Under the pieces are notes generated by a model. The model was not told where the DNA came from and searched no databases. It was given only the letters and a program-made list of their open reading frames with translations. DNA of 59,667 nucleotides, filler included, from Perkinsus olseni (lineage: Eukaryota), in the NCBI GenBank assembly GCA_013115125.1. It is 7 parts of 7 records of this genome, joined end to end, with 100 filler letters (N's around TTAATTAATTAA, not from the genome) between each part and the next. Parts side by side here need not be neighbours in the genome. Positions count along the whole stretch, not along the records: positions 1 to 8,492 come from JABANN010000966.1; 6 more parts are not named here. One strand, 5' to 3'. This document shows positions 3,028 through 38,126 of this stretch, piece by piece. The position numbers and the translations under genes were made by a program. The stretch's first letter is position 1. Every line of letters starts with the position of its first letter.

Positions 3028-3651
3028 ATGCGCTTCATATTCCTCGCTGCTCCAGTCTACGGTGGCATCTTAGGCTCTGCATCACGCAGCTATGAGCCAA
3101 TCCGTCAAATCACCGCTGTCGGCTCCAATATGCAAGCCCAGAGAGAGGTGAGAAAGGAAATCACCCGTGCCGTTTACGACAGGGTGATTGGAGACGTATA
3201 CTCAACGCTCTCGAACAACAAAGTGAATGGGACGAGGCTGACAGCTGAAGCGGTCTTCGACCTCGTTGTCCCCAAGATGGACTTGAACTTCTGGCGAGGC
3301 GCACATGAGAAAGTCCAGCCGGATTTCTCATTTTCTCTCAAATATAGACCTACACCGGAAAGGCGAGTTTTCCAATATCCCGGGGACCTCCGCCACTTGA
3401 GGTCTATAAGGATCCAGACTTGGGAAATACTTAACCGACGACTCTCAATTTGGGACTCCGCCCGACACATACTGCGCTCGAGGTCGACGAAAGCTTTCAA
3501 TGAGAAGTTCGGGGACTTCCTCAAGGCAGGGGAAGACGACTTCAAAAATATGTACTTCATACCTGATGGTGATCGTGGTGGGACGGATCACATCATTCTA
3601 ACCATTGGTGGTAACCTATTTCGTTTGTATCCGAAATCGGCTCCCGAGTGA
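3028..3651 (+). CDS. Intronless lineage-specific, probably secreted protein (207 aa)
   Basis: ATG at 3028 with a hydrophobic N-terminus (MRFIFLAAPVYGGILGSAS). The paralogue at 7872 shares the start and internal motifs (GTRL, FW.G, V.PDF..SL.Y.PT, QYPG). Confidence 0.7.
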   Translation: MRFIFLAAPVYGGILGSASRSYEPIRQITAVGSNMQAQREVRKEITRAVYDRVIGDVYSTLSNNKVNGTRLTAEAVFDLVVPKMDLNFWRGAHEKVQPDFSFSLKYRPTPERRVFQYPGDLRHLRSIRIQTWEILNRRLSIWDSARHILRSRSTKAFNEKFGDFLKAGEDDFKNMYFIPDGDRGGTDHIILTIGGNLFRLYPKSAPE

Positions 3652-4699
3652 AACACTGATGACGATTAAAGTGTGATTGAGAAAATGTGCCGTAATGTCC
3701 TGTTAGTTGTGTAAAGGCAGATATCTCTCTTTGGTTGAAGTGGACGTTACAATGTCTGGGGGAAGAGTAAAGCATCTGTATCACATTTGTGCGCACACTC
3801 GAGACCCAGTAAGTTTGCTGTATGGGAAAGCATCTAAGGTTGAAGCAAGGTCCTGCTGAAATCTACCGCCACGAATCAAGTACAGGTTCGGCTGCCGAAC
3901 TTCGGTGGGGGCCCAAAAAACACACTCGAGATAGACAGGTGTAGGCTGGGTTTGACATCGCTGAGTCGCCTTGACCGCTGAAACTTCGAAGCGGGGCTTG
4001 GGTCACGAAGAGAAAGGAGAAGTCGCTAGCATTCCTGGCAGAATCCTCCTGTATCCACAATTACATCACATTATTAATGCTGTGTCATTAGTGATGCATC
4101 TTGTGGATGTCAATATCTGGACTACGGAAGATATTGTCTCATTATACGGGATAGTTTGCAGCAGAAATTCTGCAGCATTTGATCGATGTCACCTGTAACA
4201 AGATAGAATTTTTCAGTCCAATCGCAGCCTGTCTAGGGCAGGCCTTGGCGTGCCCTTAGTCAGCAATGCTCTCTGCTACCCTTCGACAAGGATACTTCCA
4301 ACATCTCTCAGCCAGGAAGGCTTTCAAACCAGCCATAGTATACGCGTCACGTGTTCGCTTGAATATATCCAAGGAAAAGGACGTGAATTTTGTTGCGGCT
4401 AACTTTCGTTGGTTTACAAGCCGGAGGACCAGCCTTGTGCGATGGCAGTGTAGCCACTACCATTTGCAGGCAATAGCATCAAAGGAACTGCCACCGCTGG
4501 ATCTGAAGGGCTGGCCAATCTAGTGGATCTGGACCGAATTGGGCTTGGACGTTCGCTAGCTACTACCCGGTCTTTGGCTGGACGCCTAGTAGTCTCCTGT
4601 TCACGGCGAACGGCCGCAGCCATCTGTATGGATTCTGGGCCCACCTGTGATGAGTCATCACTGATGACATCACAGTGATGTTGTTTACCATCATATCTC

Positions 4700-4945
4700 T
4701 TGGTTTCTGAGAGAGTGGCTCACGTGTATGGCGATCCCGTCGGTGCCATGTGGCATATATACCCAAAGGAACGATTGGACGTCTACACAGACGCCAGCAC
4801 CATCGCGCTCGGTACTGCGTTGTTCATAGGAAAAGATCGTATTCGAAGACGGCCCTTGGCTTCTCCGAGATTCCAAACCACACATCAGCGTCATTGAGCG
4901 GAAGGCTGTGATAAGGGGGCTTTAAAGCTGCTGTATCAATTTGAT
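4700..4945 (+). pseudogene. Second, more decayed copy of the RNase H remnant
   Basis: LDVYTDASTIALGTAL, then HISVIERKAVIRGL* in another frame. Clear nucleotide similarity to 620-890. Confidence 0.6.
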
Positions 4946-6137
4946 ACTATCAAAGACTTCTCGTTGCGTTTCTTTCCTGATGATGATGGAACACGCTGGT
5001 GACCCACGACTCACGTGTCTAATTGATTGCAACGACATGCACAACATATTGATCTGCTGTATTTCTATCAATATTTTTCTCTTTAATCGATATCGGTGTT
5101 GTGTTTATTTCAATTTCGATGACAGTCGGGGACCGGCAATAATAAGCTGCGCGTCAACCAGGCCAGGAGTAATGGTGGCAAGAGGTACCAGGCCGAGGCG
5201 TCGTACGATAGGCATAGTTTATTCGCTGATCTCCATACCAATGATATTTTTGTGATAATGACACGTACCTATGCGGCCTGCAACTACCTCTATTCCATCC
5301 ACAGTGTTCCGATCGGCAGTCAGGTTATTATATACCAACCGTTTGGCGAAGGAACTCTAGCCCGCGATCATACACGACTGCTACAAACTTCAGAACGCCT
5401 TCTGCCGCTGGCTGGTGTGAACATACCCCGGCCTCTCCGTCAGAGATCTTCCACCTCCTACTCCTATGGCGTTTTCGTTGGGGTTACCGTGGAGATACTG
5501 AGTTTTGGACTCTTGGGCGACGTATGCCCAGGCACTCTGTGCGATTCTCTCTACTCTGGTCGTCATCGTTGTCCTTGCGTCACCACGGGGATGATTCCGG
5601 GTTGGGTGGTTAAGCTGGTTATCGAGGCCGAGGTCGACGAAGAGGATCTCAACGGGCAGATTATCTGGCGCAGATACAACGCAAATGGCTCGAGGACGAG
5701 TTTACCATTACCAGCTCAGCTCTCAGTCGCCTCTTCGTTCGACCTTCTCAGGATAGTAGGTTCTTCGATCCTCTTCAGGTTTTTGGGCTCCATTCAATAA
5801 CTCCTCTCCTTGTCAGATCACGTTGGAGTCTGCCTTCATTAAGCCGAGTAGCGTCTCCGGTATCGTCGACAGTACCGTCAACGACGTCAATCAGCATGGA
5901 GGATGCGATCTGGTGATCTGGAACAAAGCCTCTCAAGGCCAAGGCGAGAATGATACTGGAATCAAGCCCCCTAAGAACCATCTGGTTCGCTTATCGCCAT
6001 CTAAATTGCCGGATGATGTTAGGGCCCAGATAATGAACCGAAGGTAGGCTACTGCTCAACTTAGTTGAATCGTGTGAGTCCTTCGCTTGTGCTTCTCCTC
6101 TTAGGTACAACGGCGAGCCAGAGCAGCAGCCTGCTGC

Positions 6138-6395
6138 CAGCAGGCCAACAACCGCAATGGTCAGCAGGCCAACAACCGCAATGGTCAGCAGGCCAACAAC
6201 CGCAATGGTCAGCAGGGCAACAACCGCAATACTCAGCAGGGCAACAACCGCAATGATCAGCAGGGGAACAACCGCAATACTCAGCAGGGCAACAACCGCA
6301 ATGATCAGCAGGGGAACAACCGCAATACTCAGCAGGGGAACAACCGCAATGATCAGCAGGGGAACAACAACAATGGTCAGCAGGGGAACAATCAG
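6138..6395. repeat. 24-bp minisatellite, 10 full units plus a partial one
   Basis: Unit CAGCAGG(c/g)(c/g)AACAACCGCAAT(gg/ac/ga)T repeats from 6138 in steps of 24 bp. Confidence 0.95.
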
Positions 6396-7871
6396 GTAGG
6401 CAGCAGACGAGAAGTTGAAAGTAGGGTATTCCTGTACGCCCCTTTTTTGCAAGCATGCGTCTACTGCCGGACTGGGCGTGGAGGTTCGGCTCGACTCCTG
6501 AGTTTTCCCACAACATGACGGGCAGGGTTGATGATGTTGCTAATTTCGATGTGAGGGGCTTCATGGGGGGGGCACTGCAACGGAAGGACATCATTGGGGT
6601 TCCCTCTAGGTCGGGTCTTTCGTCTCTACGGTCGGAATCAGGCATGTTCAGAGTGAAGAAGGTTTAACTTTCTTTTTGTTCTGCTCATTGCGAGATGTTA
6701 GAGTATGGAGTTGGGGCTGTGCGCGGGGCTTTGGCTTCGAGAAGTTGGAAAAATCACTTCTCCCGCTCAACTTTGCCGCGTATGATGCGACTCTGTTCAA
6801 AATCTAAGTTTGATCATTGCAGGTTCATCTCGACGTTATTAAGGGACGTATCGTCGAATGCCGTGTCTTTACTGATGCTCTCTACCCTGACGTTATTGGT
6901 ATGCTCGAGGAAGCGCTCCGAGGGGGCTACGTAAGCCTTCACTAGACTAGCTGGCGGTCTTGTTAGGAGTTGTCGAGCTCCTCTTGGCCGGTGATCAACA
7001 GGTACTCTGCAGAGTCGATAAGAGAAGCGCTCGAATCGACTGTGGTTTTCGGGAGGACTGCGGCGGGCGAAGGCGGCGAGATACTGGTGAAGTCCTTTTC
7101 ACGATGGTTGACTTCTGAGATTTCTAAGGCGGGCTGAAGGCCAAGAATTCGTCAAGCCGGCCGCTCTGCTTCTGATGTGTTTCAAGAGTACGATCACTGT
7201 AATGTCTCTGGTTGAGTCAATGGAGGAGAATTGAATGAGAGCTTGCACAACAGTACACTGGACAGCGGGATCGCCGCGATCCGATCGCGCCCCTGGACGA
7301 CGATCTGTGTGTTGTGGGCTCTACTCGTTCGCTCTAGGTACCGAAGAAGTACTCCTTGTCTTCCTTACCTTGAAGGGGCATCGTGCCTGCTGGTTGCGTA
7401 CCCTGACAGACTCTGTGCGTATCCTGCTTGGTTGGTTCATCCCTCGGCCGTCGTAACAGAGCAGAGCACTAGATCAACGCCATTCTATTCCACTTATATT
7501 TGCTAATTCTCATCTCGCGTTGGTTGCTCGGCAGCTCAAGCGCTATGTTGAATACACGTATCGGCGATACGTTGTCGCTACCGGGTGGAAGCACGTGTTG
7601 CGGTGCCGGAGAAACCAGCCTCCCGATGAGGTCTTCCTCCCCGGTAACCATGCCCGAATGGTGGGCGAGAAAAAAAGAGAGTCTCTGAGTTAATCGGTGT
7701 TACTGCGTGAAGGGAAGCGTCACGCCCGCTGACTCCGATATTGACGGAAGATTCGGCCGCCCGGAAGGTTCTTGAATCTCGCTCATCCTTAAACACGGTG
7801 AGCTCGCCCCAAACTGTATCGTCAGACCGATCGAGCGGTTGCGGTTTTCCCTCTCTTCCCCGTCTTCGCTT

Positions 7872-8290
7872 ATGCGCTTTATCTACTTCGCTGCTGTGTT
7901 GGGTAGCATCCTGGGCTCTGTATCTTGCAGTCTCAAGCCTATTTTTGAAGAAAGCGGTTTGGGCCCATATGCGCATTGCGCATTGCGCAAGCCCGCCTAG
8001 ATGCAATACGCCAGAGCAAAGCGAGAAATGCAGTCAGTCGTGCCGTTTACAGAAGGCTGGCTGGAAGAGGATATTCAACGCTGACAGCGTTACGCTGTTG
8101 AACAACACAGCGGATGGGACGAGACTGGTAGCTAACGCGGCCTTTGACTCTGAGTTCAGAAAGGTGCGCATGAAGTTTTGGCAAGGGGAAAATAAGAAAG
8201 TCGAGCCGGATTTCTTATCTTCTCTCCGCTATCTACCTACACGGGGTTGGCAGGATTCTCAATATCCCGGTAACTTTTTACAACAGGTGA
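7872..8290 (+). pseudogene. Paralogue of 3028-3651 frameshifted by two 14-bp palindromic insertions; 3' end lost in low-quality sequence
   Basis: Removing the insertions within 7969-7990 and 8077-8098 gives one frame: MRFIYFAAVLGSILGSVS...GPYAQARLDAIRQSKARNAVSRAVYRRLAGRGYSTLLNNTADGTRL..., collinear with the intact copy. Confidence 0.8.
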
Positions 8291-8325
8291 CGTGGCCCCC
8301 GGGGGGGGGCCCCCCCCGCCCGGGG

Positions 8326-8401
<76 letters not shown>

Positions 8402-8492
8402 GGGGCCCCCCCCCCCCCCCGGCGCGCGCGCATTACATTATCTTCTGGTATCGTGCTCAAAACGTGTCAATGGAGCCGATTTTTGAAACGAG

Positions 8493-8592
8493 NNNNNNNN
8501 NNNNNNNNNNNNNNNNNNNNNNNNNNNNNNNNNNNNTTAATTAATTAANNNNNNNNNNNNNNNNNNNNNNNNNNNNNNNNNNNNNNNNNNNN
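8493..8592. other. Artificial contig linker
   Basis: 44 N + TTAATTAATTAA (stops in all six frames) + 44 N. Confidence 0.99.
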
Positions 8593-8703
8593 TATGGCGC
8601 GCGACGATTTGTACGTACAGATGTCAATACGTACGGATGAAAATACGTACAGATGTATGGTAACCTTTCCCTGGGCATACAGCATGGCGCTAAACCCCCG
8701 TCC

Positions 8704-9366
8704 ACCCAGTGTGACCAGATACTTCTGCTGGCTCGTGAGCGGTACATAGGTAAGGGGTGCCTTGTATAGCGTTGGATCACCGGCTCCGAGGAGAAGCTCT
8801 CCTTGAGTTGGTATCGAATGCGGCAGGCTCCTTAGGTAGAGAGCGAAGGTTTTACTTGTTACTTCTCCTTGCAGCTGGTCCATGAGGGAGTGGTAGCCAG
8901 GCGTTACAACCCTACCAAGACCAATGCTGTGAACTGGGGTTAGCACATCAGGGGGTGGATCTTGAAAATTTACAAGCCCGAATGTGATACCATCAACGCT
9001 CATCGGGCCAAATCCAAGATTCCCACTGTGTGGAAAAATATGGACTTCCGTTCCGTCTTCGAACTTGAGGTCCGTTATAGGGCCAACCGTACAGTGCGGG
9101 CACGCATAAGCGCCCGTTGAGAGCAGGGAGCTAGCACCAGGGTAGGTGAGACCGTCGTACCACTCTGCCCAAGTGAAGAATAGAGCGGATGATCCAGTGC
9201 CGATCTGGGCCCAAATCTGCTGATTATCCACCAATAGACCACCGGTTAGAGCATAACCATATCTGGGTAAGAAGCTATACGCGGTATTCACTCTGAGTAC
9301 TTGGCCATATGCGCCCGAGAATACCCAAATTCCCACCCGAAGGGCGAGTGCGAAGGTTCCGCGCAT
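8704..9366 (-). pseudogene. A1 (pepsin-like) aspartic protease copy; first catalytic Asp replaced by Gly; C-terminal lobe missing
   Basis: Close paralogue of 12567-13661 but reads QIGTGSS instead of QVDTGSS. Homology stops after YLVTLG at ~8704, before the second DTG. Confidence 0.8.
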
Positions 9367-12300
9367 CACGAAAACTCGTAACTAAGAGAGGCCGCTATCA
9401 GAATCCCGTTGTTCAGCGAGGGGTTTTGCAGAGCGACGTTGTAATCGATCGTGTCACTGGTAGACAGAGGGCTGTCTCCCGGACCGGGAGTCCCGGTTAT
9501 CCTAGACTTCATTGACATGGCTTTATGAATCGTAGTCCATGAGGTAGCATGACTTCGACGAAGCGATCCAGACGGAGACGTAGTCACTCGAATGTCTGAG
9601 CCGTTATAGCTCCGCGTACGCTGGACAGACAGTGAAGGCGGATCTAACGTGGATTGATAGTAGACGCCGGAACGTGTGGAACTTGTCACTGGGGACGGCT
9701 ATGTCCCTTCGTGATGTCACTAGGAGTCATCACGGGAATAGCATACGAATCGTGGGGATCGATCGCGGCAAATCCAGGAGGCCATTGTTGCCGAGCGAAG
9801 GAGGTCTAGCATCGACAACTCACAAGGCAAGGTTTAATCTCCACTGTCATTCTCTGCTCGTAGTACACTGCTACTTTTTCCACAGTCGTCAGTGCGTGAC
9901 GCACGGCGCATCAACACCAACGTATAGACGTGACGTTGCTAGCGTCACCCTTGCGCGCTACCCGTGCTGCCTCACTGAGTGGTCAGCCGGTATCATTATA
10001 CGCCTGTCATCGGCATCCACGAAGCCTGAATCCCCGAGAGATGAGCGATAACCGAATCGATTACACAAACTCAATGCGCTTCCGTTGAGGCTGGCGTTGC
10101 GTGGTCGGCGTCACGAGGGGACGGGATGCAACAACATGATTCTGTGCATCACTATTAATATGCATTACGCCCTGCCTCTCCACGCGGATTCTCACTACGA
10201 GTCGGTGGGATCGATCCATCAGTCTTCCGAGTCGGAATTTCAGATGGCCTGGGCATCATAACCAGCGCCGCGTTCCAATCCTTCTGCGGGGCCTGGCGTG
10301 CGTTATCGTTGAGAATCCACTCGACTTGGTGGTCGGGATTGCGGTCAGTATCGTGGCCTGAGAGAGCCAGCGCTGGGATAACGGGTCCCACAGGTGTCTG
10401 TATTAGGCTTTCTGCTCCAGGTCCAGTGAGAATGTGGAATCGTATCAGCTGAGCTCCGATATTGAGAATTAAATTAATCCAACCCACGCTGCATCATTGC
10501 TTGGTACTCGCTGAAGCACCGAGGTGTGGTGCTTCTTGTAATGTGCAGGACACGCCTACAAGGTCCCAGGCGTGCGCCGTTCCTCTAATTTTTCGTCAGC
10601 CATGTCATTCAAAGAGCAGCTTACGTGACGAGTTCTAGATGACAGATACAGTTAGGGTTCGCTCACGACGATGCCGAGAAGAAGTATGAGGTTGAAAGCG
10701 ACCCAAGCACCCTCTACTATGTTACGAGTTCGCTGCTAGCTAGTAATTGGTTACATTGTGGCGGATAGCATTCCCATGTAATCTACGATCCAGGTTTGTT
10801 TCGAAATGGCAGCACCCTCGCGTTCGTAGCGTTAAGCAGGTGTCGCCAACTCGAGGGGCTAATTCGAGCCTTCTCTCCCGCACTTCACGAACATGGTGTT
10901 TCAAGGACGATTCCGTTACTCGTGACCGCCACGTGTCCGCCAGAACGTCAAGTAGCTTGGCCGGCGTAAAGGACCGGTTCTCCCTCGTTTCGATGCTTGT
11001 GGCCTCCACGGAGTGCCCCCTCAGTGATGAGTTCAACCCTCGTGACTACGACACTGGTAGCAGCATTTGGAGACAGCTCAAATGCATAGTGATTTGTTTG
11101 CAGTACCCTGCCTTCATTTCCCGTTGAACGGAGACGCCCTCGACCCGACGGCATTATCGGGCTACACGGAGGCGGAAAACTTCTACCTAGGTCTCACCTG
11201 AGGGTCGAGGTTCCGAAGGGTTTTGCGATCTCTGCCGATTCAGCTCCGCACGGCACTAGAGCATCTCGCGGAAGGAGGGACTCTGGTGAGGTCCGAGCAT
11301 TACCTCCTATCATCCTTTTCGCGTCGAGCTGATCACACGGATTGGGCAGGTCGTGCATCGGGCAAGCGGATCGGGCGTGGATCGGACACGGGTTGCTTTA
11401 CAGTTGAAGTATGTGCCAGCAAAACAACGCGAACGTCATTTGCTGAATTGAGTGGCGTCGTGTTAAGTATCAAAACCCTCGGCAAAACGGGACCACGGGG
11501 CATCGAGTCGAGAGCAGCTCTTCCCTTCCATCCCAGCTGTAGTACTCAGTAACCGAAGACCTCAAATGATTGCGCAGCTTTTGAGTTGTGCAACAAGGGG
11601 CTATGAGGGGTGAACCCTCAATCAAGTCGACTCTCTGTAGCGTCCGAGAGAGCACTCTCTACGTAATTCTCCAATCCAGCATAGACGAGATCAGGTGAGT
11701 TTTCGCCTTAGGCGGTAACGATTGCAAATGAGTGGAGGAAACACTGAGGGACTGTCGATAGCGCAAAGGCTACCGAAGGCCAAGACGCTTCACCTAGTCA
11801 TTCGAACGTACAGGAGGATCCGATATGGTGGGCGCTTCGGCGGCTCTTCGAAGCAGCATCGGCCAACTCTTGGAGTAGCTCTCAACTCCCGCATGGAGCC
11901 TCCAGCCAGGGTAAAGCAGTATGTGAGTGCATTTCGAGCACCGACCGACTTGCTTTGGGACCAACTGATTTGGTCTGGGCTTTCCGTGACTGCTCTGGGG
12001 CCCTAGTATTTTGGTCTAGACCAGGACTGCTAACGGCATACCTCGAACGTGAGAGTATCGGGAGCACCATGTGGGAGAGTTTGACCGAGCCCCGCCTCAA
12101 GCAAATGACTCAAGATGCCATCAAGATTGATAACTTACTACTAAGGCATAGGCCTAATGACTTCGGCGACTTCTGACACGGCTTGGCCCGAGCAAGAGAA
12201 TCTCGCTCGCAGTTGGGCGCAAGCTCGCTAAGTGCGACAAGACAGACAGGGAGATAGGTTACGCAGTGCGTAATACGCACCACCCAGAATCGGACATTCA

Positions 12301-12566
12301 TCGGAGAAGTTCTCCGGGAGAACATCATAGTCGGACCGAATCAATGAGGACAATGAGTACCGACCAAGACACGACAAGATATTACTGATCTCACTCATCA
12401 TGAGTTTACTCTTACAACTCTACATGGCAAATCCACGCCAACGCCCCGTTGGCTCGCTGACTACGGGTACTCAATGGAAAAAAGTTTCATCATTTACCAG
12501 AACATGAAAAGATCTCGCTGCATGCTAGAAGAGAGTCCTGAGAGGGAGCCTTCCTTGACCTTACCG

Positions 12567-13661
12567 TTACTTGAGGTCAGCGATTCCAATTCGCTGTTGA
12601 CTCGGCTGGAACTCGAAGTACTTGCCGACCAAGATGAAATGCGGTAAGGTCCAAGTGCTTCCCGAGCCCTTTTTGATGGCAACCGTGCAGAAACCACCTC
12701 CTGTATCGCGGGCGTAATACAGACCACTTAGAAGAACAGGGGCGCTGCCTGAGGGGCCCAAGCCGAGCTCTATGGGTGGCAGGTACACGATGTGGTGGCA
12801 ATTGATTACGCAGGCCCCGAGTATAGGGATGTAGTCACAGTCGACTCTGAATCCAGCAGTAGCTGATGCTTGGTCGGTGATGGCCTTCAGGGTGGCATCA
12901 AAGTGGGTAGGGGGGATGACCAAGCCTTGTGTCCCAGTGTCTATGAGAGCAGGTTGGTTGATACCGATAGACTTGGGGCCCGAGCCGACTTGTAGAGTAC
13001 CCAGCGTGACTAAGTATTCCTGCTGGCTCGTGAGCGGTACATAGGTAAGGGGTGCTTTGTATAGCTTGGGATCACCGCCTCCGAGAAGAAGCTCTCCATA
13101 AGTCCGAATCGCGTTTGGAAATCTCCGTAGGTAGAGAGCGAAAGTCGCACTTGCTACTTTTCCTCGCAGCTGGTCCATAAGGGAGTGATAACCAGGCGTT
13201 GCCGCCATACCAAGACCAATGCTGTGAACTGGCGTTAGTACATCAGGGGGTGGATCTTGAAAATTGACAAGACCAAATGTGATACCATCAATGCTCATCG
13301 AGCCAGATCGAAGATTCCTACTGTGCGGGAATATATGGACTGTCGTTCCGTCTTCGAACTTAAGGTCCGTTATAGGGCCAACCGTACAGCTCGGGCACGC
13401 ATAAGCGCCCGTTAGGAGCAGAGAGCTAGCACCAGGATAGGTAGCACTGTCGTACCATTCTTTCCAAGTGAAGAATAGGGCGGATGATCCAGTGTCGACC
13501 TGAGCCCAAATCTGCTGATTATCCACCAATAGACCACCGGTTAGAACATAGCCGTATCTGGGTATGAAGTTATAGCCAGTATTCATTCTGAGTACTTGGC
13601 CATATGCACCTGAGAATACCCAAATTCCCACCTGAAGGACGAGTGCGAAGGTTTCGCGCAT
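12567..13661 (-). CDS. Secreted A1-family (pepsin-like) aspartic protease, intronless, 364 aa
   Basis: Signal-like N-terminus MRETFALVLQVGIWVFSGAYG. Both catalytic motifs are present (VDTGSS, LIDTGT), plus GELLLGGGDP and C-terminal YFEF...RIGIA. The ATG is conserved in the paralogue. Confidence 0.92.
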   Translation of the reverse strand: MRETFALVLQVGIWVFSGAYGQVLRMNTGYNFIPRYGYVLTGGLLVDNQQIWAQVDTGSSALFFTWKEWYDSATYPGASSLLLTGAYACPSCTVGPITDLKFEDGTTVHIFPHSRNLRSGSMSIDGITFGLVNFQDPPPDVLTPVHSIGLGMAATPGYHSLMDQLRGKVASATFALYLRRFPNAIRTYGELLLGGGDPKLYKAPLTYVPLTSQQEYLVTLGTLQVGSGPKSIGINQPALIDTGTQGLVIPPTHFDATLKAITDQASATAGFRVDCDYIPILGACVINCHHIVYLPPIELGLGPSGSAPVLLSGLYYARDTGGGFCTVAIKKGSGSTWTLPHFILVGKYFEFQPSQQRIGIADLK

Positions 13662-14664
13662 CGCAAAGGCTGCTAACCACAAGAAGCTGCTAACAGAATC
13701 CACTGGATTCAATCCAGCCGCCCAGCACGACAAGCAGCCCAACAACAGTCGAACTCTGAGTTGATGAGGAACGGTCAAGAGATCGCGAAGTAACGGTGGA
13801 GCATGCACCTGATGCTAGCTTTATGTAGTTCGTTAGTCGGTCCCGCACCGCAAGCAGAGCGAGAAGCCCTCATAATGCATACGTGCACTGCATGCGGATC
13901 AATCTATTGTGCGTTGTTGTCTACCCAAGCCTGTCGGCAATGAGAATTTTAGATCGAGCCCGCGCTGTAGGCAGGCAGGCACAGGTGCGTAGGCTACACA
14001 ACTGTGTCCACCTGCCTCTGGCATGGTAAGATCGATCGGAGTGGACTCACTGCCACTTCCAAGAGAGGGCCAACCGCGTTAGTGATTCACTGCTGCCATG
14101 CTGTTATCATACAGCCGCTGTGCACCTAGAGACAGCAGTGTAGTAACTAAAGACTGAACAGGGTTACTAGGCGTACAGCATTACGAGCTCGCTTTCGCCG
14201 CCAACAGATCGTAATGATCGAGACCATCACATCTTATGGTTGTTCGGTTGCTAGACTTTTACTTGCTGTAGTAGTGAACGCCATTGAAGTGCTGTGGCCT
14301 TGGCCGTACAGATACAGATTACTGCACACAAACTTTTGTGCGCCCATTGCCTCTGCGTATTAATTTCACTCACGCCGATTCTCCCTCGTAGGGTGTTTGT
14401 GTGAGTATGAAGTCCAACGCCGACAGTACGGTTTAGTTAGACTAGATCCGATAGCTACGAAGGGTTGCTACCAGGCTTTCGTCGCCATATGAAGGATTTG
14501 TAAAATACGATGCTCCCGTATAATGACGAGACACAATGAATAGAATCTGTACCGTTTCAGCAGTGAGATCGAACTCTTTCCCCAGCTGTAGTACTCAGTA
14601 ACCGAAGACCTCAAATGATTGCGCAGCTTTTGAGTTGTGCAACAAGGGGCTATGAGGGGTGAAC

Positions 14665-15031
14665 TGTTACCAGTCATGGCAAACCCAAGTACTTAAGACT
14701 TCTCAAGAGACTGTTATTAAGAGTACATCGTCATTAATCAATGGGCAACGCTAAGCTAAGATATGGGGACAGATGTCTTGTGTGCTGAGTGGTCAGGGAC
14801 ACTGGCCACCAGACACACAACACTGTTGCAGATGCCCTAGGTACTGTGCTTAACACAACAGCACAGAGTAAGCCGAGAGGCAGAATTGTACTTGCGTACA
14901 CCGCAACAAAATAGCTATGGTGGAATAGATCAACTTGGCGACCTATAGAAACATAGCAATACGGAGTTACACTGTACAGTACTCAAGGCAGAGACATCAC
15001 AGCAATGAAGGCAACAACATCACAGCAAACA
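14665..15031. mobile_element. Solo LTR-like insertion (367 bp)
   Basis: Absent from the paralogous site near 11610 (GGGGTGAAC|CCTCAATC). Ends are TGTT...AACA, flanked by TGAAC and CGAAC (5-bp TSD, one mismatch). Confidence 0.7.
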
Positions 15032-16328
15032 CGAACCCTCAATCAAGTCGACTCTCTGTAGCGTCCGAGAGAGCACTCTCTACGTAGTTCTCCAATCCAG
15101 CATAGACAAGATCAGGTGAGTTTTCGCCTTAGGCGGTAACGATTGCAAATGAGTGCAGGAAACACTGAGGGACTGTCGAGTGTCGACTCGAGGGTCTGAC
15201 GTCTGAGGCAAACGATATCATCATCCTTGTGGTGTCACCACGATGGTGATCGCAGTGAATGAACACGTTTCAAGTGGGGTATCGGGTTCGTGCTTCTACA
15301 TGCGGAGCGCAGTATTCACGTCGTAAGTGTGTGTGAGCCTAACCCTGTTAGGGGTTCTCTGACTGAAACTGAACTCATTGCAACTGAAGGCCAAGAAAAA
15401 GTCGTGTTGTCTCCCGCGCGCGGTGGCTGACCACTTTAGATGAAGCCCTGACCAACTTGATAGGACTCCGTAGCAATGTGATCTAACGAGGGGCCAATTC
15501 AGTCAGGCTTCACAACAGCACCAGCAAGAATGGAAGATTCACGATCGTCGACAGCGTGTACCTTGAAGATAGCTTCATGCAAATCGTGGATAGCGCAAAG
15601 ACAACCGAAGGCTAAGATGCTTCATCTAGTCATTCGAATGTACTACCAAATCGTACTACCTATCGTACCTAGAATCGAAGTAGCCCAGCAGCGAGGGTGC
15701 AATGTATGGAAGTCAGAGAAGAATCGTACGCATAGGGATATGGTAAGCGCTTCAGCACCTCTTCGGAGCAGCATCGATCAGCTCTCGAAGTAGGGCTCAA
15801 CTCAAGGCTGAAGCCTCCAGCCAGGGTAAAGCAGTATGTGAGTGCGTTTCGAGCGCCGAGCAAATTGCTTTGGGACCAACTGATTCGGTCTGAACTTTCC
15901 TTTACAGCTCTGGGGTCCTAGTATTTTGGTCTAGACCAGGACTGGAAATGGCGTACTTCGAACGTGAGAGTATCGGGAGCACCATGTGGGAGAGTTTGAC
16001 CGAGCCCCGCCTCAAGAACACGACTCAACATGCCATCAAGTCTCAAGATTGATAACTTACTACTAAGGCCTAGACCTGATGACTACTGACACGGCTTGGC
16101 CCGAGCGATAAAAGCTTGCTCACAGTTGGGCACAAGCGCACTAAGTGCGCAAAGACAGACTGGGTGACAGGTGACGCAAGACCCATTGGTGGGCATTCCT
16201 CAGGGAACGCCACAGTCGAGAAAAATCAATGATCTTCGGTTTCCAGGTCTGCCGGGTAGACGGGCAGGGCTGGCCATGGCTCTGCCCGCGCGTGATCCAC
16301 ATGCATGGACGCGGAGCATATGAGGACC

Positions 16329-16425
16329 GCTGTTAGGAATTCTTAGGACTCCTAAGAATTCCTAACAGCTGGTCCTACTATCGTTAGTGCTCCTAAGTTA
16401 GGAGCACTAACGATAGTAGGACCAG
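16329..16425. repeat. Two abutting perfect palindromes (20+1+20 and 28+1+28 bp); long-armed excision scar
   Basis: 16329-16369 and 16369-16425 are exact inverted repeats with 1-nt centres. The two centres reconstruct one 8-mer, CTTAGGAG. Confidence 0.9.
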
Positions 16426-16796
16426 TCCGCGATTGACGAACACGATAGGCCGGAAAGGCCAATATATGAAGGGCAACAGTTGCCCGGCAACTACTAGAAT
16501 AGCTAACTCGTAAGAGCGATCAACTTCGCATACACGCGATATGTGTACGCATATACGCCGAACCTAGACGGCTCTACTAGCAACTCTAACGAGGATGACT
16601 CATCGTCGATGGGTACCGACCAAGACGCGACAAAATTTTACTGATCTCGCAACTATACATGGCTTACCCACGCCAACGCCTTGCTGGCTCGCTGACTATG
16701 AGTAATCATTGGAAGTAAAGTTGTATCATTCATTGTATTTTGAGAAGATATCGCTGCATGCTAGCAGAAAGTCGTGTGAGGCAACCTTTCTCGACC

Positions 16797-16994
16797 TTAC
16801 CGTGATTGGAGGTCTGCGATCCCAATTCGCCGTTGACTCGGCTGGAACTCGAAGTACTTGCCAACCAAGATATAATGCGGTAAGGTCCAAGTGCTTCCCG
16901 AGCCCTTTTTGATGTCGAGCATGCAAACACCACGGCCTATAGCGCGGGCGTAGTACAAACTACTTATAAGTAGAGTGGCGTTGCCTGAGGGGCC
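16797..16994 (-). pseudogene. 3' fragment of a third aspartic protease copy, interrupted by an insertion
   Basis: Translates as GPSGNATLLISSLYYARAIGRGVCMLDIKKGSGSTWTLPHYILVGKYFEFQPSQRRIGIADLQSR*, matching the C-terminus of 12567-13661. Confidence 0.85.
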
Positions 16995-17066
16995 TAGAGG
17001 TGGGCGAGAGTACGGGTACGGTTTGGTACGGAGTACGGTACGGGTACGATTACGGTTCCGTACCCG
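16995..17066 (+). mobile_element. Putative hAT-type DNA transposon terminus, truncated by contig end
   Basis: Protease homology stops exactly at TAGAGGTGGGC, which resembles the hAT (T/C)A(A/G)NG terminus. Clustered TACGG and CCGTAC motifs follow. Confidence 0.5.
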
Positions 17067-17166
17067 NNNNNNNNNNNNNNNNNNNNNNNNNNNNNNNNNN
17101 NNNNNNNNNNTTAATTAATTAANNNNNNNNNNNNNNNNNNNNNNNNNNNNNNNNNNNNNNNNNNNN
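17067..17166. other. Artificial contig linker
   Basis: N44-TTAATTAATTAA-N44. Confidence 0.99.
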
Positions 17167-17597
17167 GAGCCTCCGTGGACATCAACACTGAGGTAACGGA
17201 AATCGTCTTTATTGACGTTGTATTCCTTCGTCTTGGCGTTAACCGTCACGTCCGTAGCGACGCTGCCGTACTCGTCCAAGTTGAAGTCACCGGAGTAGAT
17301 ACCAAATTTGGCAGTCTTGCGGGTATCGAAGAAGTCACCCGGCATAATATCAGTTATATCACCGACGTCACCCAATGCCCCCGACATGAAGTCCGTCATC
17401 TCATGGTGGACGCCACCCATACCCTGATGGTACAGATGATACAACATCTGCAGAGGGTCCAACAGATCGTGGCCGTGGTAATCGTCGCCAGAAGGAGGAT
17501 GAGGCATCTTCGTAGGCAGAATGGACTCCTCGGAGGTGTTATGGTCCTCGGCAGCGGCCTGCCACACACCAACGTAGAGAAGTGCAGAACGGAACAT
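17167..17597 (-). CDS. Hypothetical secreted protein, 5' part only (truncated by contig edge)
   Basis: ATG at 17597, signal-like MFRSALLYVGVWQAAA, frame open to the gap, His/Met/Asp-rich segment. Confidence 0.6.
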
Positions 17598-18111
17598 ATG
17601 CAAAATACTGTAAGACAGAAAACATTGTACACCGTAAGGTAGGATATCTAAGTAGTACTTAGTAAGTACACACAGACCACAGTCCGACCACTACTTTGGT
17701 TGAAAAGCAGTTAGGCTGCTCAGTAGCGTTAGTGAATTCCGATAATCGTTGGACCGACGGGTACACCGGACGAGCCGTTTCAGATGTGATATCCTTCGCT
17801 CGCCTCGACGGTTTCCAAGATACGCCGACGAAACGAAACCGCAGAGCAGTTCTTCACGGTCAGCTTCCCTCCGGCGGATGTAAAATTTCGCCAAGTATTT
17901 GGAGGGTTTCATCTCCATGGCTTTCTCGTGGCGTCCTATGCGCCGCCTAAGCCAGTTGTATTGCATGGGAACTCGTCTGGGCCTCAATTACTTTTGAAGA
18001 GGGCATCACCGAGAGTCGACGCTTCCATTATCACCCGACTATTGGTCTTTTTTCCATCATTAAAGCTCAACACCAGATATTGGTAAGATTAAATACTCAT
18101 CAGAAACATCA

Positions 18112-19990
18112 TCATCTGTTCAACTTCTTAGCTTGGAACACACCGTATCTGCAAGGAGCCACTCGACTTAAAACACAGTGGGACATCCCCACTGCATGAC
18201 TCCGTCCCTAAAGGCTTCGTGCATCCTCTCTATAGTGACTATCTCACGAATAGTCGACCACCACACTCGCGGCCTGAAAACAAAGGATTCTCAACAGCAA
18301 AGGGAAGGCTGGATGTAAACTCACCCGCGGAAAACGACGGGCCAAGGCCACCAAACCCCGACGAAGATTGAGTGCCTCCAGCTTGGGAGCGTCTGAGGCG
18401 TCCAGTCTCCCGACTTCACCTGCTGCATCGAGAGCCTCCTCCTAAAAGGTCGAATCAGCTGGCTCATCCCTCATGAAGGAGCAGCGCTCACTTTCGCAAG
18501 ATATCTCCGTACTCCTCGATGGAGATGAACATCGGATGAGACCATTCTTCGTAGAGAAAACGGAGAAGCCATCTGAAGGGGAGAAAATAACGCGACCCAG
18601 CCAAGAGAGAGTTCCAACCTTTGATGCTTCGTCAGAGACTTCCGCTCATTTGTTTCACACCAGGTCGCAATTATCAGTCGTCCACCGGGCTTCAACACTC
18701 GACACATTTCCTCGACGTACCTTGGCAAAAAGCGTCACTGCGCCACGAAATTACACTCACTTTTCCTTATCCGGAACATGTTCGCCGCACTCGCAGGACC
18801 AAACCAAATCGAAGGACTCTTCAGGAAACTCCATTTGCAGGGCATCCATCTTCCTGAATACCACCAGCATGACCGCGCGCCACGAAATTCACGGCGAGCC
18901 TCGCCTGAAGGTCACGTTCTCTAGTCTAGCCTCCTTGGTGATTTGAGTGGCTCTCTCCACTTGCGCATCCGATAGGGTGATGCCCGTCACCTGCTCGCCA
19001 CATATAAGGATACAGAGACACCTTCATCACAGCATCCTCACCTGCACGGCTTTGCCGTAGCGTTTAGCCATTATACGACTACTACCGCCGATACCACAAC
19101 CAACGTCCAGTATCCGAAGAGGCTCTGAAGCTGAATCGGAGCTCACACTTGTTGAGAAAATGCGACGACCGTGCCACCAAGGCTGATCCGAATGCAAACT
19201 AGAATTGCAACTATGTCAAATGCGAAACGGGACTTCCGCGGCTCCCACTGTCGAAACCCCTCACAAGAGGCGATGACCCTGAGCCCAATTAAGTTCGGGC
19301 TGGGCTATCCCGACGCCGGAGCAAGCCAAAACCTCAGCCGTGCCGTTGGAGGATTCCGCCAACATCACACGGCCATCCCATCCCATCCCATCCCATCCCA
19401 TCCCATCCCTCCTCACCTGTCTTGGCCAATTCCTTAACAGCAGCATCGAACCCTCCCCATTGGAGTAGTTCACCCACGAACGTTAACTTCTGCTCCTTGA
19501 ACATGGTCGTCCTGAGGGAGAGAGTGTTGCCGTAGCCGACTAATTAAGTTCACCTAAACGATGCCGCTACGACGAGGATGACACACTAAAGGCGCGGCGT
19601 CGTATTCATCCTCACAGTGCAGCAGCTATGCCCGTCATCATCATCATTGACACAATCCGGATACACCAACCGCATCAGGACACCTCTTATTATTCCAGCA
19701 GGTACACTTGACCAGGGACTCTATGAAACCATCATCACGATGGAACCATCCCTTGGCCTCCTCAGTAGTATACGCCCCTAGGTGGATATGCTCTCCCCAG
19801 AAGCTCTCCACCAGTCCTGTAGAAAACACTCCATTGCGGCAGCCTTCGCTTTGGAACGCCCTCACCATCGTTCGTCCACTTATCGTACTCGTCGCCAACA
19901 CCACCGTCGGGCCGATACCTGCCCATGACAACATCAATTGTTGACGAACCCGAGAGAGCATCAACGAATTTTACAGAAGTTGCACAGACA
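18112..19990 (-). CDS. Multi-exon SAM-dependent methyltransferase, cyanobacterial-type MPBQ/MSBQ or gamma-tocopherol MT family; 5' end not resolved
   Basis: Exon peptides in order: GVGDEYDKWTNDG, LVESFWGEHIHLGAY, LRILDVGCGIGGSSRIMA, VTGITLSDAQVERA, MDALQMEFPEESFDLVWSCECGEHVPDK, YVEEMCRVLKPGGRLIIATWC, FLYEEWSHPMFISIEEY, DWTPQTLPSWRHSI, MHEAFRDG, YGVFQAKKLNR*. Confidence 0.85.
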
Positions 19991-21479
19991 CTTGCACTGA
20001 CACGGATGTGCAGGAAAATCATTAGCGAGTGCCATGGCCACCAAAGGGGCCATGCCGTGCCTGATGCATCATCACCGTCGCCCACTTACGGCCGCGACCC
20101 CTTCTGAAGCAATGTCTGATAGGCCCACTTGGAAGCTAGGGCACAGGCGGAGACGGCCAAGGAGGGGAGATGATGATGGACGACTGTGAGGTAAAGTGGG
20201 ATGAGTAGCCACATGTTGTGCAACCTGCAGGGGGGATGGTCCACCAATCAGCCGATGGTCGATAGAGACTCACCCAGAGTATTCCAAGGCCGCCTGAATT
20301 TCCCGTTGAAGAGGTTTGATCGAACCACATACCAACAGCTGGGCCATCGGAACACTGAGAGAGGCAGCGAGGGCCGCTGCTGGTGACAGGGACATTAATT
20401 ACGGCCAAAATCAAAAAACTGCGACCATGGTGGTGGTGCTGCTGCTGCTGAAGAGCACATGTTCATGTTGTCTTCTCCAACAGGACGTCTTCTCCGCGTG
20501 GCTGTGCGGAGATACTCCTGGAGTGCTGCAAGCTAGGGCTGTTGGCGCAATGATGATGCCACCTGCATGATGATACCCAATACATGCCGCCGTAAAGGGG
20601 CTCGCAATGGGGGTACTACTGTATGTTGACCCATACCAGTATGGCGAGGCTGTAGCGACGTGTGATATACGATCCATGGGGGCTCCCTCCAGGATAAGAC
20701 ACACTCTCCCGTGCAGCCGATCGACAGGCTCAAGAGCATAGCAAGAAGCGAGCAGTAGAAAAGGCTAGTCATTCCACCGACATGCCATGATTCTGATAAG
20801 CCTCAGTTACCACAGAGAGCCGCACATGGACGCGGACGGTGGACTCCTGTGTTGTTGAGCCCTGGAAGGGAAAGGCCGCCAAGAAGCAGCCTGCAATTGA
20901 GAACCCCAATTAACCCCCACATCATGAATGATCCTCACCTCGGAGCTGGTCAGAGAGAGAGTCTCCGCTCCCTCTAGTGCACAGCTGGGACAAGGTGTAG
21001 TCGCCTGGCGCCGGAGGGACGAAGAATCGACAATTACCCAGGTACATGAAGGAACAGAGCATGCGTGTCGTGCATGCCAAGGAGCGTTGCTAGAATCTTC
21101 GAGGACGTCTCGGCACAACTCCCAATAGAGGTCGAACCCCCAAAAGCACTCGGGGAGTAACGTTGTGGGAGTTGATCTATTGTTCTCGCGGGCAACCCAC
21201 ACGATGCCAACTAGAGTTGACGCCAACGGGCCGGCCCTTACTCAGCCCGCCTCGTGGCCACTCGAGTTCCTCGTATCCTGATGTCGATCATGGGCCAACG
21301 TGAAGGGTCTGTGATGGCCAGGTGGAAGCCGAAAGAACATCTTAACGGAACTTTCGAGTCTGCCGCTGTCAGAAGGTCGGCCAAAACGGGCTGAAGAAAA
21401 AACAAATCGAACTGGTTCACCAAATCCCAACGTCAGCTGAAGATCAAGTTACAGCCTACTACGATGCCATTTTTGTCTA

Positions 21480-22772
21480 GAGCCAGCATCGACCAAAGAT
21501 ACCACATCCAGTCAGACGAAACAGCAGTCCCCATCTCACATAGCCATTATCATGCTCGGTAACCGGAGCGCCTCCCTTGGCTTCACCCTGCAGTATGATG
21601 TATTCCGGATTGGAGTCGTCTGTGGGAGGACACAATCGCCAAGAACAAGCCGCTGCCCTCAAGGGTGACACTCCTACCTACGGCAAGGCTCAATTCACAG
21701 CGTTTACCAAAGAGAGCGCTCAACTCGAATTTACACGTAAAACAGCGGAGGCCTCATCGACATACTGTAGTCGCTGAAAAATCGGGAGGCACTGCCAGGA
21801 ATATCAACGACGATGTTCCGTGTAATGATGAAGGTTATACTGCTTTTGCACAGAGGAGTGACGGACAAGATGCCAGACCAAGCTGCTACTGCGGCTGCTC
21901 TTCAGTACCGAAGCAGTACTACCGCTTCAATTTGTGAGACTCTTGAGCGAGATCGGGGATAAGGCCCATAACTATGTAGACCCTATGGTTCTCTAATGAT
22001 GTTAGAAAGGTCGATCGAACCCTCCAGGCCGGCAATAAAAGCATTGCTGGCCCACCCTACCGCCTCGACGGCCGTGATCTCCCCATTCACGTACAGCTGG
22101 GGTCGTCGGAGCCCTCGAGATAGCGAGCCGATACTGCTCCTGGATGGCATATACCGACCAAATACAACCACTTCGAATGAAAGCTTCAAACGCCCCTACA
22201 CCACCCACACCGGTACAGTTGCTACTAATAACTTACTATACTAAAACTGGCTACATATAGTAACTATAAAGACCCTCGTCCCACCGACACTCCCATCTCT
22301 GACAACTGACAACTCCAGCCACAGCACCATCAGCAGCACAGAAACCGTCACTTAGGCCACAGCGGCATGGAACCCTCACGAAGATGCCAGGCCTTGTCAT
22401 ATTTTATCCTCCACTCCATGAACCTTGCCAAGCCCGCAGCTTGCAGACTATGTTCCGCCTTCAGGCACGCATACTTGATGCTCACCAAGTCCCGCGATAT
22501 TCGGTCGAAGGAGGTCAGCCGAACTGGTATGAACTCCACCATTCCATCGACTATCGAACTCTCAAGGAACGTCCCTCCTGAGGAAGCCAGGCTGAGCTTC
22601 AACGCTCGGGCACCGCAAAGACCCGAAAACGGCAAGCCGACCAGATGCAGAGCAGCATGCAGCAGGGGCCCGGGGGGCAGGGCTAGGTTCACCAGCGCCA
22701 TCGAGGACGTCGATACTACGAACATCGACAGCCATTTGAAAGCTCGCAGGATCATCCTGACCAGCATAATGG

Positions 22773-22804
<32 letters not shown>

Positions 22805-24520
22805 CCAGGCCGCTACTACTTCCTCCGGGATGCTCTTGCCCACTCGATGATTTCGGCTGGGCCATGCTGTTGTGGGTCGTAATAGACCACCAATGATGGT
22901 CTGTCATCGGGCAAACCTCGGAAGGTTATCACTGCGCAGCGAAGTAGCGTCTTCTCTAAAGGATCGCAACGGGCCGACCTACGAACAAGTGACTAGGCTT
23001 CGACCCACTCAGATAGAAAGATACCCTCGATCGCTACGATCTTCAATCTAACACTCCGGCCGATCAGTATAGACGACATAGCATCACTTTCAACCATCCC
23101 AGCAGAGATCAGGTCATGTCGAATCATCGAGAAGCCTTGCACAATCATCTGTATACTACAACAGCAATGAGTACCGATTAATAAGCCCAGTAACAGTGTA
23201 ACGAGGCACATTAATCAGTGCTCTGCTTCTTACTAGAGCTTCTTATCTAAATACGTTTGCTCATTACTTGCACCCAAGGAGCCGTTGAGTTAAGACTAAT
23301 GGCTTGCTGTCCACAGCAACAACCTCGCACTGCCCTTGCTACCATTCATTCTCCAACCACCGCGCCAGTCGTACTCGTCCAGCCTCCCTCACCAAGTCCG
23401 CTACATCCAACTCGTCATTCAAACCGATCAGTCGATTTATCAGCGGGAACTGGCCAAGTCGTCCCTCTCGGATAGTGTAGACGACAGGCTGAGACCTCGG
23501 GAGAAGGTGATGACGGAAAAAATAAAGTCGAGCGACCGACATGTGGGTGAGAAGATCTCATCTGCCACCGAGTAACAGCGAGGACTATCGGTGATTGCTC
23601 GTACCAGTATCGCCCCTCAAAGGCTCCTTAGAACGTCCTCTTGGATGGAATAAACTAATGGATTTGGCCGAGCTTTGGCCGAGCTTTGTGAGCCGAGTGC
23701 GAATAGACAAGAAGCCGTCATCACGCGTGTTGCTCGGCATCGCCCTTAGAAGGAACCCAACAACATTCCCAGCCTGTCAAGTCGAAAAAGCAATAATGTA
23801 AATGCTCGTCGTCGGCTGTGTGAAACGGCGATTTCAGTAACTAGTGTCTGGTGCTGCTGCTGCACTTAGGCGATTTTACGGTTCAAGTCCAGCGCCCGGT
23901 GAAGACTGTTGAAGAACTCCTTAGCTGATATTACGTACGACGCAAAATTCATGTTGGCAACGAACCTGACAACAATCGATCTCCTGCATCATCACTGACG
24001 GCGTCTCTCACATCTCAGCGGCCTCCTCGGCAGTCACCAACTCGATGCCCACTAATTTGCATATACTGTCCAGCGCAGTCTTCAGCTGGGCGGGCTCCTT
24101 CAAGAGACGCTCTCCACTAGCACAGCCATCAGTAGCACCTACGAACATGCTCACCGCGGCCACGGACTTGGCAGGCTCCTACGTTTGAAGCTCTCCAGGC
24201 AAGCGACTTGGAAATCTCCCTGCTCTCTGAGAAGTCGGCCGAGGTTCTTCACGGCATTCTCATGCTGTTGAATGGTATCTTCACTCTGAATAATAGTATG
24301 ATTACAATCGACCAGCCGTTTCACTATATAACACTTCTTACATCAGCAGCAGTGACCCTTTCCGAATCACCGTTGGGGTCTACTACCGGGATGGCAGTGT
24401 TAATGACACTTCCCTGCCACTCCTCGGGGACCAACTGACCGTCCTCAATCGGCATAGTAACGAGTAAGTCAACTAATGATAGCAAGGTGCTTCGAACAGT
24501 AGTAAAAAGCTTAGTCGCTG
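21480..24520 (-). CDS. One or more multi-exon hypothetical protein genes
   Basis: Protein-like minus-strand ORF blocks (21983-22189, 22348-22767, 22993-23150, 24324-24460) separated by short intron-like segments. No motif recognised; boundaries uncertain. Confidence 0.4.
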
Positions 24521-25632
24521 CGCAGAGTAAAAACGGACGGCCTGGAGATCGAACCTGGGAGCTTGTAAACAGCGCAGAGTAATTTTCGCTCGCCCGAAAA
24601 CACAACAGACCCACAGCGAGTCGTGTTGGTATCGTACATCACAAGAAGATGAATGTCAAGAAGGCCACTTAGTATCATTAAACAATACACCAACCAACAC
24701 TGAGTGAAGGAACTGTCTCATTACACTGTGGACACGACAAAGTCGGGGCTAGGGAGCCACCGTGCAACCTAAAGAGGAGGAAGATGGATGGACTTCGCAG
24801 ACCTCAGATCTATGGATTCGTGTGGATTGATACAGCCCGGTTCGAAGTTGGCATGAAAACGAGCCGAGGTACCGCTAGAATTCCCATCGAAAAGGGATCT
24901 CTGGCAGGGCCATAAACTTCACGTGCCCGGCCTGCCCATCCATTTCCCGGTCGAGTAAAAACTTCGACCAGTTCGTTTGAAATGTTGCCATCAATCCGCT
25001 CTCGCCTTCAACCGATGGTCGCCCACTTTGAGCAGATCTTAGCCGATTTTAGGAATTGTAAATAAGACCTCCACAAGGCCAAACAACACACATGCCCACT
25101 TCGAGTGTCTTTGCCGGTCGAGGTAAGTCAACCGAGGTCAATCTATTCCAATGAGGCCTCGGAGTTTTACAGGCGATCCGATGAGCAGCTATTCGTCATA
25201 TTTTAGCTCAAGTCCAGAGATACTGAAGTTGGGCACGAGAAACTTTACATCGAGTATGCGGGTTGAATCGAGTTTGGCAAGTTGGGTTTGATTAGACAGT
25301 TTGTCTGGGAGAGAGCATTGAACTTTGCGACAAAGTTTGAGTAGATTAAACATCGTCTTGCGAGGACCAACAAGACTCTGGGTTGCTCCGATCGCAGTCT
25401 GGCGGTTTTTGCGCAGGACTAAACCATCTCCCGGTCAAAAGAAAACTCTTGTTACGAGAGTTCGGGCAAAAACAGCCAGACTACGATCGGAGCGACCCAG
25501 AGTGCCGCGGCGAAGAGGAAAATACTTTAATCGGCAGTATTATCGCCATAGTATTTCTACTCTACACCTTTTCCCGAGCAAATAAAATGTTTTTTCGTTT
25601 GACTTAAAAGGGCACGGAAAATCGAATTTCAT

Positions 25633-25732
25633 NNNNNNNNNNNNNNNNNNNNNNNNNNNNNNNNNNNNNNNNNNNNTTAATTAATTAANNNNNNNNNNNN
25701 NNNNNNNNNNNNNNNNNNNNNNNNNNNNNNNN
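25633..25732. other. Artificial contig linker
   Basis: N44-TTAATTAATTAA-N44. Confidence 0.99.
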
Positions 25733-25846
25733 CATTTCGATCATACTAGCCTTCCTTAAGCTGAGGGCTAGCCATCGAGAACTCATTATTGGAGTTGTTC
25801 TATTCAATACTCAGTAATCTTCTTGTCAGTTGTTTGCTATTAATTC

Positions 25847-27415: not shown

Positions 27416-27725
27416 TGGTGATGATGATTTAATAACCGACTAATACTCACGCGAAGAGTATTTCTCTTCGACTTTAGCCAAATGTGTTTCTTCTTTTCTT
27501 CTTTCTATTCTATTCTCGCTGCCTCTGTTCTCATGAAATCAGTTGTTGCCTTTCGTGTGTCGTTTGTGTCTGCTGTTGTGTTGCATTTTTCGGCTGAGGG
27601 TTGCGGAGGGGGTAACTACATTAACATAATGATGGACCGTCTAAGGCGAGTCTTGGTAGGACAACTCAAAAAGGCTGAAAACAGCGCGAAAAAGAAACAG
27701 GTGAATCTTGTAACAGCCTAGGTGT

Positions 27726-34166: not shown

Positions 34167-34266
34167 NNNNNNNNNNNNNNNNNNNNNNNNNNNNNNNNNN
34201 NNNNNNNNNNTTAATTAATTAANNNNNNNNNNNNNNNNNNNNNNNNNNNNNNNNNNNNNNNNNNNN
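34167..34266. other. Artificial contig linker
   Basis: N44-TTAATTAATTAA-N44. Confidence 0.99.
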
Positions 34267-34310
34267 CACCACCACCACCACCCCAACCCAAGCCGGCTGA
34301 CCTCAGATGG

Positions 34311-35340: not shown

Positions 35341-35413
<73 letters not shown>

Positions 35414-36407: not shown

Positions 36408-36439
<32 letters not shown>

Positions 36440-37107: not shown

Positions 37108-37139
<32 letters not shown>

Positions 37140-37314: not shown

Positions 37315-37362
<48 letters not shown>

Positions 37363-38095: not shown

Positions 38096-38126
<31 letters not shown>

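Follow-up and report, generated by a model that had tools for sequence, protein, structure and literature searches.

Two 14-nt scars in a Perkinsus olseni gene as probable excision footprints of hAT-type transposons

A frameshifted gene and its family

We analyzed a window of 59,667 nt of Perkinsus olseni DNA made up of seven unrelated contigs (~8.4 kb each) that are joined by 44 N, TTAATTAATTAA, and 44 N (positions 8493-8592 and five more joints); positions 1-8492 are contig G000:C3304. This contig carries the 5′ part of a gene at 7872 that belongs to a Perkinsus-specific protein family (~210 aa, function unknown; Table 1). The reading frame from its ATG closes after 42 codons, with a stop at 7998-8000, and the gene contains two scars, each an exact match to the form X1-7 + rc(X) + X2-8 with a different 8-mer X, just as the original prediction had it. 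Before, between, and after the scars the gene runs in frames 3, 2, and 1, respectively, with no stop in any of these segments when it is read in the paralogue-matching frame. The scars sum to +28 nt and thus the two frameshifts do not compensate each other. The contig does not extend through the 3′ part of the gene, as it becomes poly-G/C from 8295 and terminates at 8492; the poly-G/C stretch (8295-8420), which truncates the gene, looks like a sequencing or assembly fault.

Table 1. Positions of the gene, its paralogue, and the scars and related sites in the window
Feature	Position	Strand	Basis
Frameshifted gene, 5′ part	7872..8293	+	Paralogue alignments and frame analysis
Intact paralogue, 207 aa, scar-free at both sites	3028..3651	+	In-frame 18-nt gap beside scar 1
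Scar 1, X1-7 + rc(X) + X2-8, X = ATGCGCAA, +14 nt	7969..7990		Exact 22-mer; paralogue gaps; run data
Scar 2, X1-7 + rc(X) + X2-8, X = AACGCTGT, +14 nt	8077..8098		Exact 22-mer, 8-mer differs from scar 1; paralogue gaps
Exact scar, polymorphic between isolates	4647..4668		14 nt left out at 4648 in X7 and X8
Empty 8-mer in window; perfect +14 scar in X7 and X8 (reciprocal polymorphism)	3945..3952		Run alignment
Empty 8-mer in window; +20 variant in X7 and X8	5707..5714		Run alignment
Long double-hairpin footprint, arms 20 and 28 nt, 1-nt centres, common 8-mer CTTAGGAG	16329..16425		Palindrome and double-hairpin scans
17 further exact 22-mer scars (span 4933..59596)	4933, 6123, 7268, 9476, 12259, 12302, 13696, 16471, 17648, 46685, 49715, 49906, 56257, 56348, 57531, 58574, 59575		Window scan

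The gene was aligned to the intact paralogue at 3028 and to a second family member (L002), and each scar corresponds to a 14-nt gap in both. The claim that collapsing each scar to its 8-mer restores one open frame collinear with the 3028 paralogue is borne out by these gaps and by the stop-free segments, except that the 3028 copy has an additional in-frame 18-nt gap at scar 1, which makes L002 the better collinear template. Eight family loci were found, and a scar lies inside the family match at only one of them, the focal gene. No Pfam family was matched in a profile search, no Atlas match exceeded 0.83, and the single database homologue (P0001), like a database match to a transposase, is labelled Perkinsus olseni. 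The family may be secreted, judging from a mildly hydrophobic N-terminus (hydropathy of 1.8-2.25, compared to 1.5-1.7 internally). Five GT..AG joints at window 1438-2639 in the RNA-like run X9 place a spliced gene upstream of the paralogue pair; the same run has no cover over 7203-8290 and on splicing-out of the scars gives no evidence either way.

Scars across isolates and across the genome

Four of the 10 listed sequencing runs were aligned to window 1-8290, with X2 coming from a different study than X7 and X8. Run X2 is identical to the window over 7163-8290, with no differences or gaps and with both scars present, though it is possibly the source sample of the assembly. In the divergent runs X7 and X8 scar 1 is absent, 14 nt being left out at 7970. 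Record 16 of run X7 is 34 letters short over 7720-8290, a shortfall that would be accounted for if the two scars and a further 6 nt were lacking (the indels listed do not show scar 2 separately); the X8 record stops at 8081. Three other sites in the window also differ between isolates, and they do so in both directions (Table 1). In the +20 allele at 5707 the left fold-back probably extends 5 nt past the 8-mer and would have been joined via a flank repeat. Three 7-nt indels (X7/X8) at window 4603, 4850, and 5011 gave no clean fit to the footprint model. No hAT element occupied a scarred site in a sister allele among the rows listed for the four runs, a small sample. In a multicopy non-autonomous element, scars occur in single copies and the sister copies are empty. 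On the basis of the isolate presence and absence in both directions and the empty sister copies of the element, we conclude that the scars are derived and segregating. The earlier claim that they are derived insertions therefore holds, with unscarred paralogues, the absence of scar 1 from X7/X8, and empty sister copies all agreeing.

The window contains 20 exact scar 22-mers, compared to 0 in each of 10 order-5 Markov controls, and a chance origin is thereby excluded. Contigs 4 and 5 of the window have none and contig 3 has one. The genome sample was widened to 510,117 bases (60 stretches plus the window, not random by base), in which we counted 101 exact, 52 one-mismatch, and 81 two-mismatch scars; many scars have decayed by 1-2 substitutions. 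The 101 exact scars have 101 different 8-mers. Exact-scar density varied from 9 in 86 kb (contigs at spaced numbers) to 42 in 200 kb (a later batch), and the scars are clustered (variance/mean of 2.6 over 47 stretches). The samples hold ~100-200 exact scars per Mb, which by rough extrapolation would be 4,000-8,000 per genome. When a fixed ruler was applied to 224 kb, k = 8 combined with a one-base trim at either side yielded 50 exact matches, compared to 0 or 1 in each of the other cells for k = 7-12. The scar 8-mers favour T2/A7 (85 of 202 slots, 42% per slot, p = 4e-8), a bias that is significant but weak. Two further features of the window are recorded here: a minus-strand frame at 6061-6645 encodes a Cys-rich tandem repeat, with the scar at 6123 in one repeat unit, and two aspartic protease paralogues lie on the minus strand at 8593-9366 and 12567-13661, with an exact scar a short way upstream of each (9476 and 13696).

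The geometry of the scars was examined with palindrome and double-hairpin scans. Among perfect palindromes with arms of 11-31 nt, 30 had a 1-nt centre, and the remaining loop sizes between 0 and 7 had 1-4 apiece. Double hairpins centred on one shared k-mer were found 114 times at k = 8 in the 510 kb, compared to 0-3 times at k = 6, 7, 9, and 10 and 0 times in three Markov controls. These 114 footprints comprise 98 at +14 (three fewer than the 101 exact scars, which are dropped by a low-complexity filter in the double-hairpin scan) and 16 that are longer. Five of the 16 are in frame, with spacings of 17, 20, 23, 23, and 41 that yield +24, +27, +30, +30, and +48. Short footprints of the Ac type are not enriched: +8 was observed 9 times, compared to 10 and 13 in two controls, +7 was observed 50 and 51 times, compared to 34-45 in controls, and the classical short forms from +7 to +11 were in all at or near control counts. 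An excess at +6 was rejected as a specific footprint because the same excess occurs at k = 7 and k = 9. The +14 share refers to recognisable footprints only, precise excisions and deletions being invisible to these scans. Two features expected of a footprint were found, namely an 8-bp duplicated target on both sides (at k = 8 only) and palindromes with one-base centres at both flanks, in which the centre is the complement of the lost flank base.

Proposed origin of the scars

The scars are probably excision footprints of cut-and-paste transposons that duplicate 8 bp of target, most likely hAT elements. Insertion would duplicate the 8-mer X on both sides, as is shown for hAT elements in this genome and would apply equally at the scar sites. 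The transposase would then nick one base into each flank and seal the flanks as hairpins with a one-base tip, a known chemistry (PMC2921059, PMC5499845) whose geometry can be seen in the scars; the left product would read X1-7 followed by the complement of X8..X1, and the right product the complement of X8..X1 followed by X2-8. Given arms of up to 31 nt, the host may open these hairpins at least 8 nt from the tip, on the 3′ side, leaving long 3′ tails. The tails, complementary over the inverted 8-mer, would anneal, and trimming and fill-in would produce the exact 22-mer (+14); we infer these last two steps from the products. The longer forms, which are rarer, would come from joins at other microhomologies. 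A coding sequence that carries the +14 product would stay frameshifted once the element had left. As part of this whole hAT reading, and with the same high but incomplete confidence, the gene at 7872 is a multigene-family member that bears two footprints and is now a lineage-specific null allele or pseudogene. By inference, the gene would have been disabled as soon as the transposon inserted; the second scar may mark a hit on a copy that was no longer functional, or the result of a local hop.

Candidate sources are present in the genome. Eleven matches to the hAT dimerisation domain were found, and one element (L033) encodes an unbroken 791-aa hAT transposase that is 76% identical to a P. marinus protein. 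The L033 sequence is collapsed from at least two copies; one pairing of its flanks gives a 16-bp TIR and an 8-bp duplication, and the other is not clean. A second, 4094-bp element (L036) has an 11-bp TIR, an 8-bp duplication, a fragmented frame, and weak zf-BED and Hermes-DBD matches. The duplications of the hAT or candidate elements (ACTGTAGC, CCCAGGAG, and ATCGAACC) include no full match to nTnnnnAn, three sites being too few for a test. A further hAT transposase copy (L016:1380-1800, compared to L009) itself carries a +14 scar and a ~49-nt fold-back insertion in its C-terminal region. No site that is filled in one copy and scarred in another was found among the matches listed for 223 scars compared with 714 kb. 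Merlin was considered as a scar source and no match was found, an absence that is not proven. Two other elements touch the window. Its positions 1-292 hold the right terminus of a non-autonomous multicopy element with 41 matches and a depth ~100x that of the adjoining sequence; the element has GGG/CCC ends, contains GTACGA-rich repeats and, judged by eye, an internal tRNA-like segment, and shows 8-bp duplications at some of its copies. Positions 22022-24547 are a candidate non-autonomous element of 2526 bp with a perfect 10-bp terminal inverted repeat and an 8-bp direct repeat outside it.

The same hairpin-and-anneal route could be followed by a MULE, or another flank-hairpin transposase, that makes an 8-bp duplication. 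MULE transposase matches outnumber those of hAT (27 compared to 11), with 15 over the cut-off and several in frames of 700-935 aa, the MULE Muta1 makes flank hairpins and 8- or 9-bp duplications (PMC5499845, PMC5225508), and the multicopy GGG-ended non-autonomous element, which could belong to this group, has a clean 8-bp duplication in three of nine two-ended copies, with 7-8 bp in a fourth. We nevertheless consider this origin improbable. MULEs usually produce a mixture of 8-10-bp duplications, yet the footprints include none at k = 9 or k = 10, and a search of 11 MULE stretches gave no convincing TIR or duplication. Muta1 is without target preference and excises precisely in ~90% of cases when duplications are present (PMC5225508), whereas the scars are T2/A7-biased. 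The lack of 9- and 10-bp footprints, together with the weak Hermes-like base bias, favours hAT over MULE. The MULE-type frames of 700-935 aa sit on G000 contigs C204, C226, C433, C45, and others.

Two readings dispense with a transposon. Short-range template switching in replication, in which X1-7 is copied, the strand is switched, rc(X) is copied, and the polymerase switches back, yields the same letters by a two-switch path, and such events are known in ape genomes (PMC7954356). The copied length in apes is broad (median 12, MAD 4.5, maximum 128), but in the Perkinsus scars it does not depart from 8, with an offset of one base at either side, and the long forms carry two separate hairpins centred on one 8-mer; we regard this path as very improbable. 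A library or assembly artefact might be suspected from the poor poly-G/C stretch just downstream in the contig, yet X2 matches 7163-8290 exactly (with the reservation on its origin given above), X7 and X8 lack some scars and have others, and many scars carry substitutions, so that this explanation can be almost wholly discounted.

The uniformity of the product under the favoured hAT reading could reflect the way in which the host repairs hairpins. An intron-containing Ku gene (L139:4168-5855; N-terminal and core domains, Ku80-like by eye) was the only Ku locus found, and a gene for an SNM1/Pso2-type nuclease is also present, which makes simple loss of classical end joining an inadequate explanation for the uniform scars. 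The available text of PMC8062965 does not address Ku in Perkinsus. Tentatively, and with somewhat more doubt than assent, we propose that Perkinsus repairs transposon hairpins almost only by far-from-tip opening and annealing through the inverted duplication, despite having Ku and a Pso2-like nuclease. Each excision would then be self-marked by +14, thousands of past sites, far above the number of surviving elements, would be readable and roughly datable, a gene would seldom be restored, and nulls that differ between isolates would accumulate in dispensable families.

Relation to known footprints and effect on genes

Hairpins at the flanks, P-nucleotides, and joining at microhomologies are documented for Ac/Ds and Hermes (PMC5873905, PMC2921059, PMC5499845). 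The Perkinsus scars share several traits with Ac/Ds, a hAT element studied in plants, Saccharomyces cerevisiae, and Candida albicans: the 8-bp duplication, microhomology joins, and palindromes whose centre is the complement of the element-adjacent base (PMC5873905, PMC2921059). They differ in that Ac/Ds footprints are varied and mostly short, whereas 98 of the 114 recognisable Perkinsus footprints are one +14 product and +8 is at background. Candida yielded 28 footprint types in 128 clones with a longest P-insert of 3 nt (PMC5873905), sugar beet a 1-bp loss or exchange (PMC5873905, PMC2921059), and yeast Ac/Ds arms of up to 20 nt with microhomology in 88-89% (PMC5873905); excision outcomes in rice were also varied (PMC4423477). 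Hermes/hobo, in the Ac family of hAT, is alike in its flank hairpins and 8-bp duplication and, more loosely, in its nTnnnnAn target preference (PMC10368747, PMC5499845), and one Perkinsus element has a CAGAGA end with weak zf-BED and Hermes-DBD matches, but the Perkinsus target bias is weak and none of the scars is linked to a particular family. Muta1 and other MULEs also make flank hairpins, and 8-bp duplications occur among them (PMC5499845, PMC5225508); unlike the scars, Muta1 has mixed 8/9-bp duplications without target preference and mostly precise excision in yeast (PMC5225508).

A literature search found no paper on such scars in Perkinsus, with subscription papers and bioRxiv supplements mostly outside its coverage, and no genome-wide, near-uniform footprint at such density, with the classic single-locus footprint papers outside coverage. 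Footprints of Ascot-1 and Tam3 reportedly include inverted additions joined at microhomologies, and the +14 product may be among them; those were studied at single loci, whereas the Perkinsus scars are near-uniform, genome-wide, and present at 100-200 per Mb. The chemistry is known, and it is the uniformity and density of the +14 footprint that are without match in the literature found. Footprints of hAT elements are normally varied, short, and recognisable only against an outgroup, and a near-uniform footprint that is readable from one genome would provide a map of past transposition. The scars could also serve directly as polarised markers among isolates of this shellfish pathogen, and they present a natural setting in which to ask what governs the point of hairpin opening. 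The present analysis contributes an intact hAT element with an 8-bp duplication and allele data for the focal gene, and the broken gene at 7872 is one ordinary example of the process. If the far-from-tip repair reading is true, excision would seldom restore genes and isolate-specific null alleles would build up in dispensable families.

The original prediction went further, stating that the repair outcome always frameshifts and could drive pseudogenisation in secreted-protein families. The +14 product does shift the coding frame, and it is the main visible outcome; it is not the sole one, given the 16 longer footprints and the five of these that are in frame. That +14 is a main driver of pseudogenes in such families appears unlikely to us. 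Scars of this kind put the focal gene, the hAT transposase copy, and a partial duplicate of a gene out of frame, and unscarred alleles of the first focal scar segregate, but the focal gene is the one scarred locus among the eight of its family, and only one of four frame switches among 139 query frames has a scar. Nor is there an excess of frame pairs offset by 14 (at least 70 codons on each side), which flank 4 of 148 scars, compared to 5.4% of random sites and to 14.9% expected if hits in long frames were kept; these frame proxies miss short exons and failed to flag the focal scars. The rate of same-frame pairs is 14.9%, the expectation if hits in long frames were kept. Scars lying wholly inside stop-free frames of at least 200 codons numbered 5 of 153, and such frames make up 17.6% of the bases, a comparison that is partly circular. 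This scarcity of scars in long frames fits purging or avoidance of coding hits.
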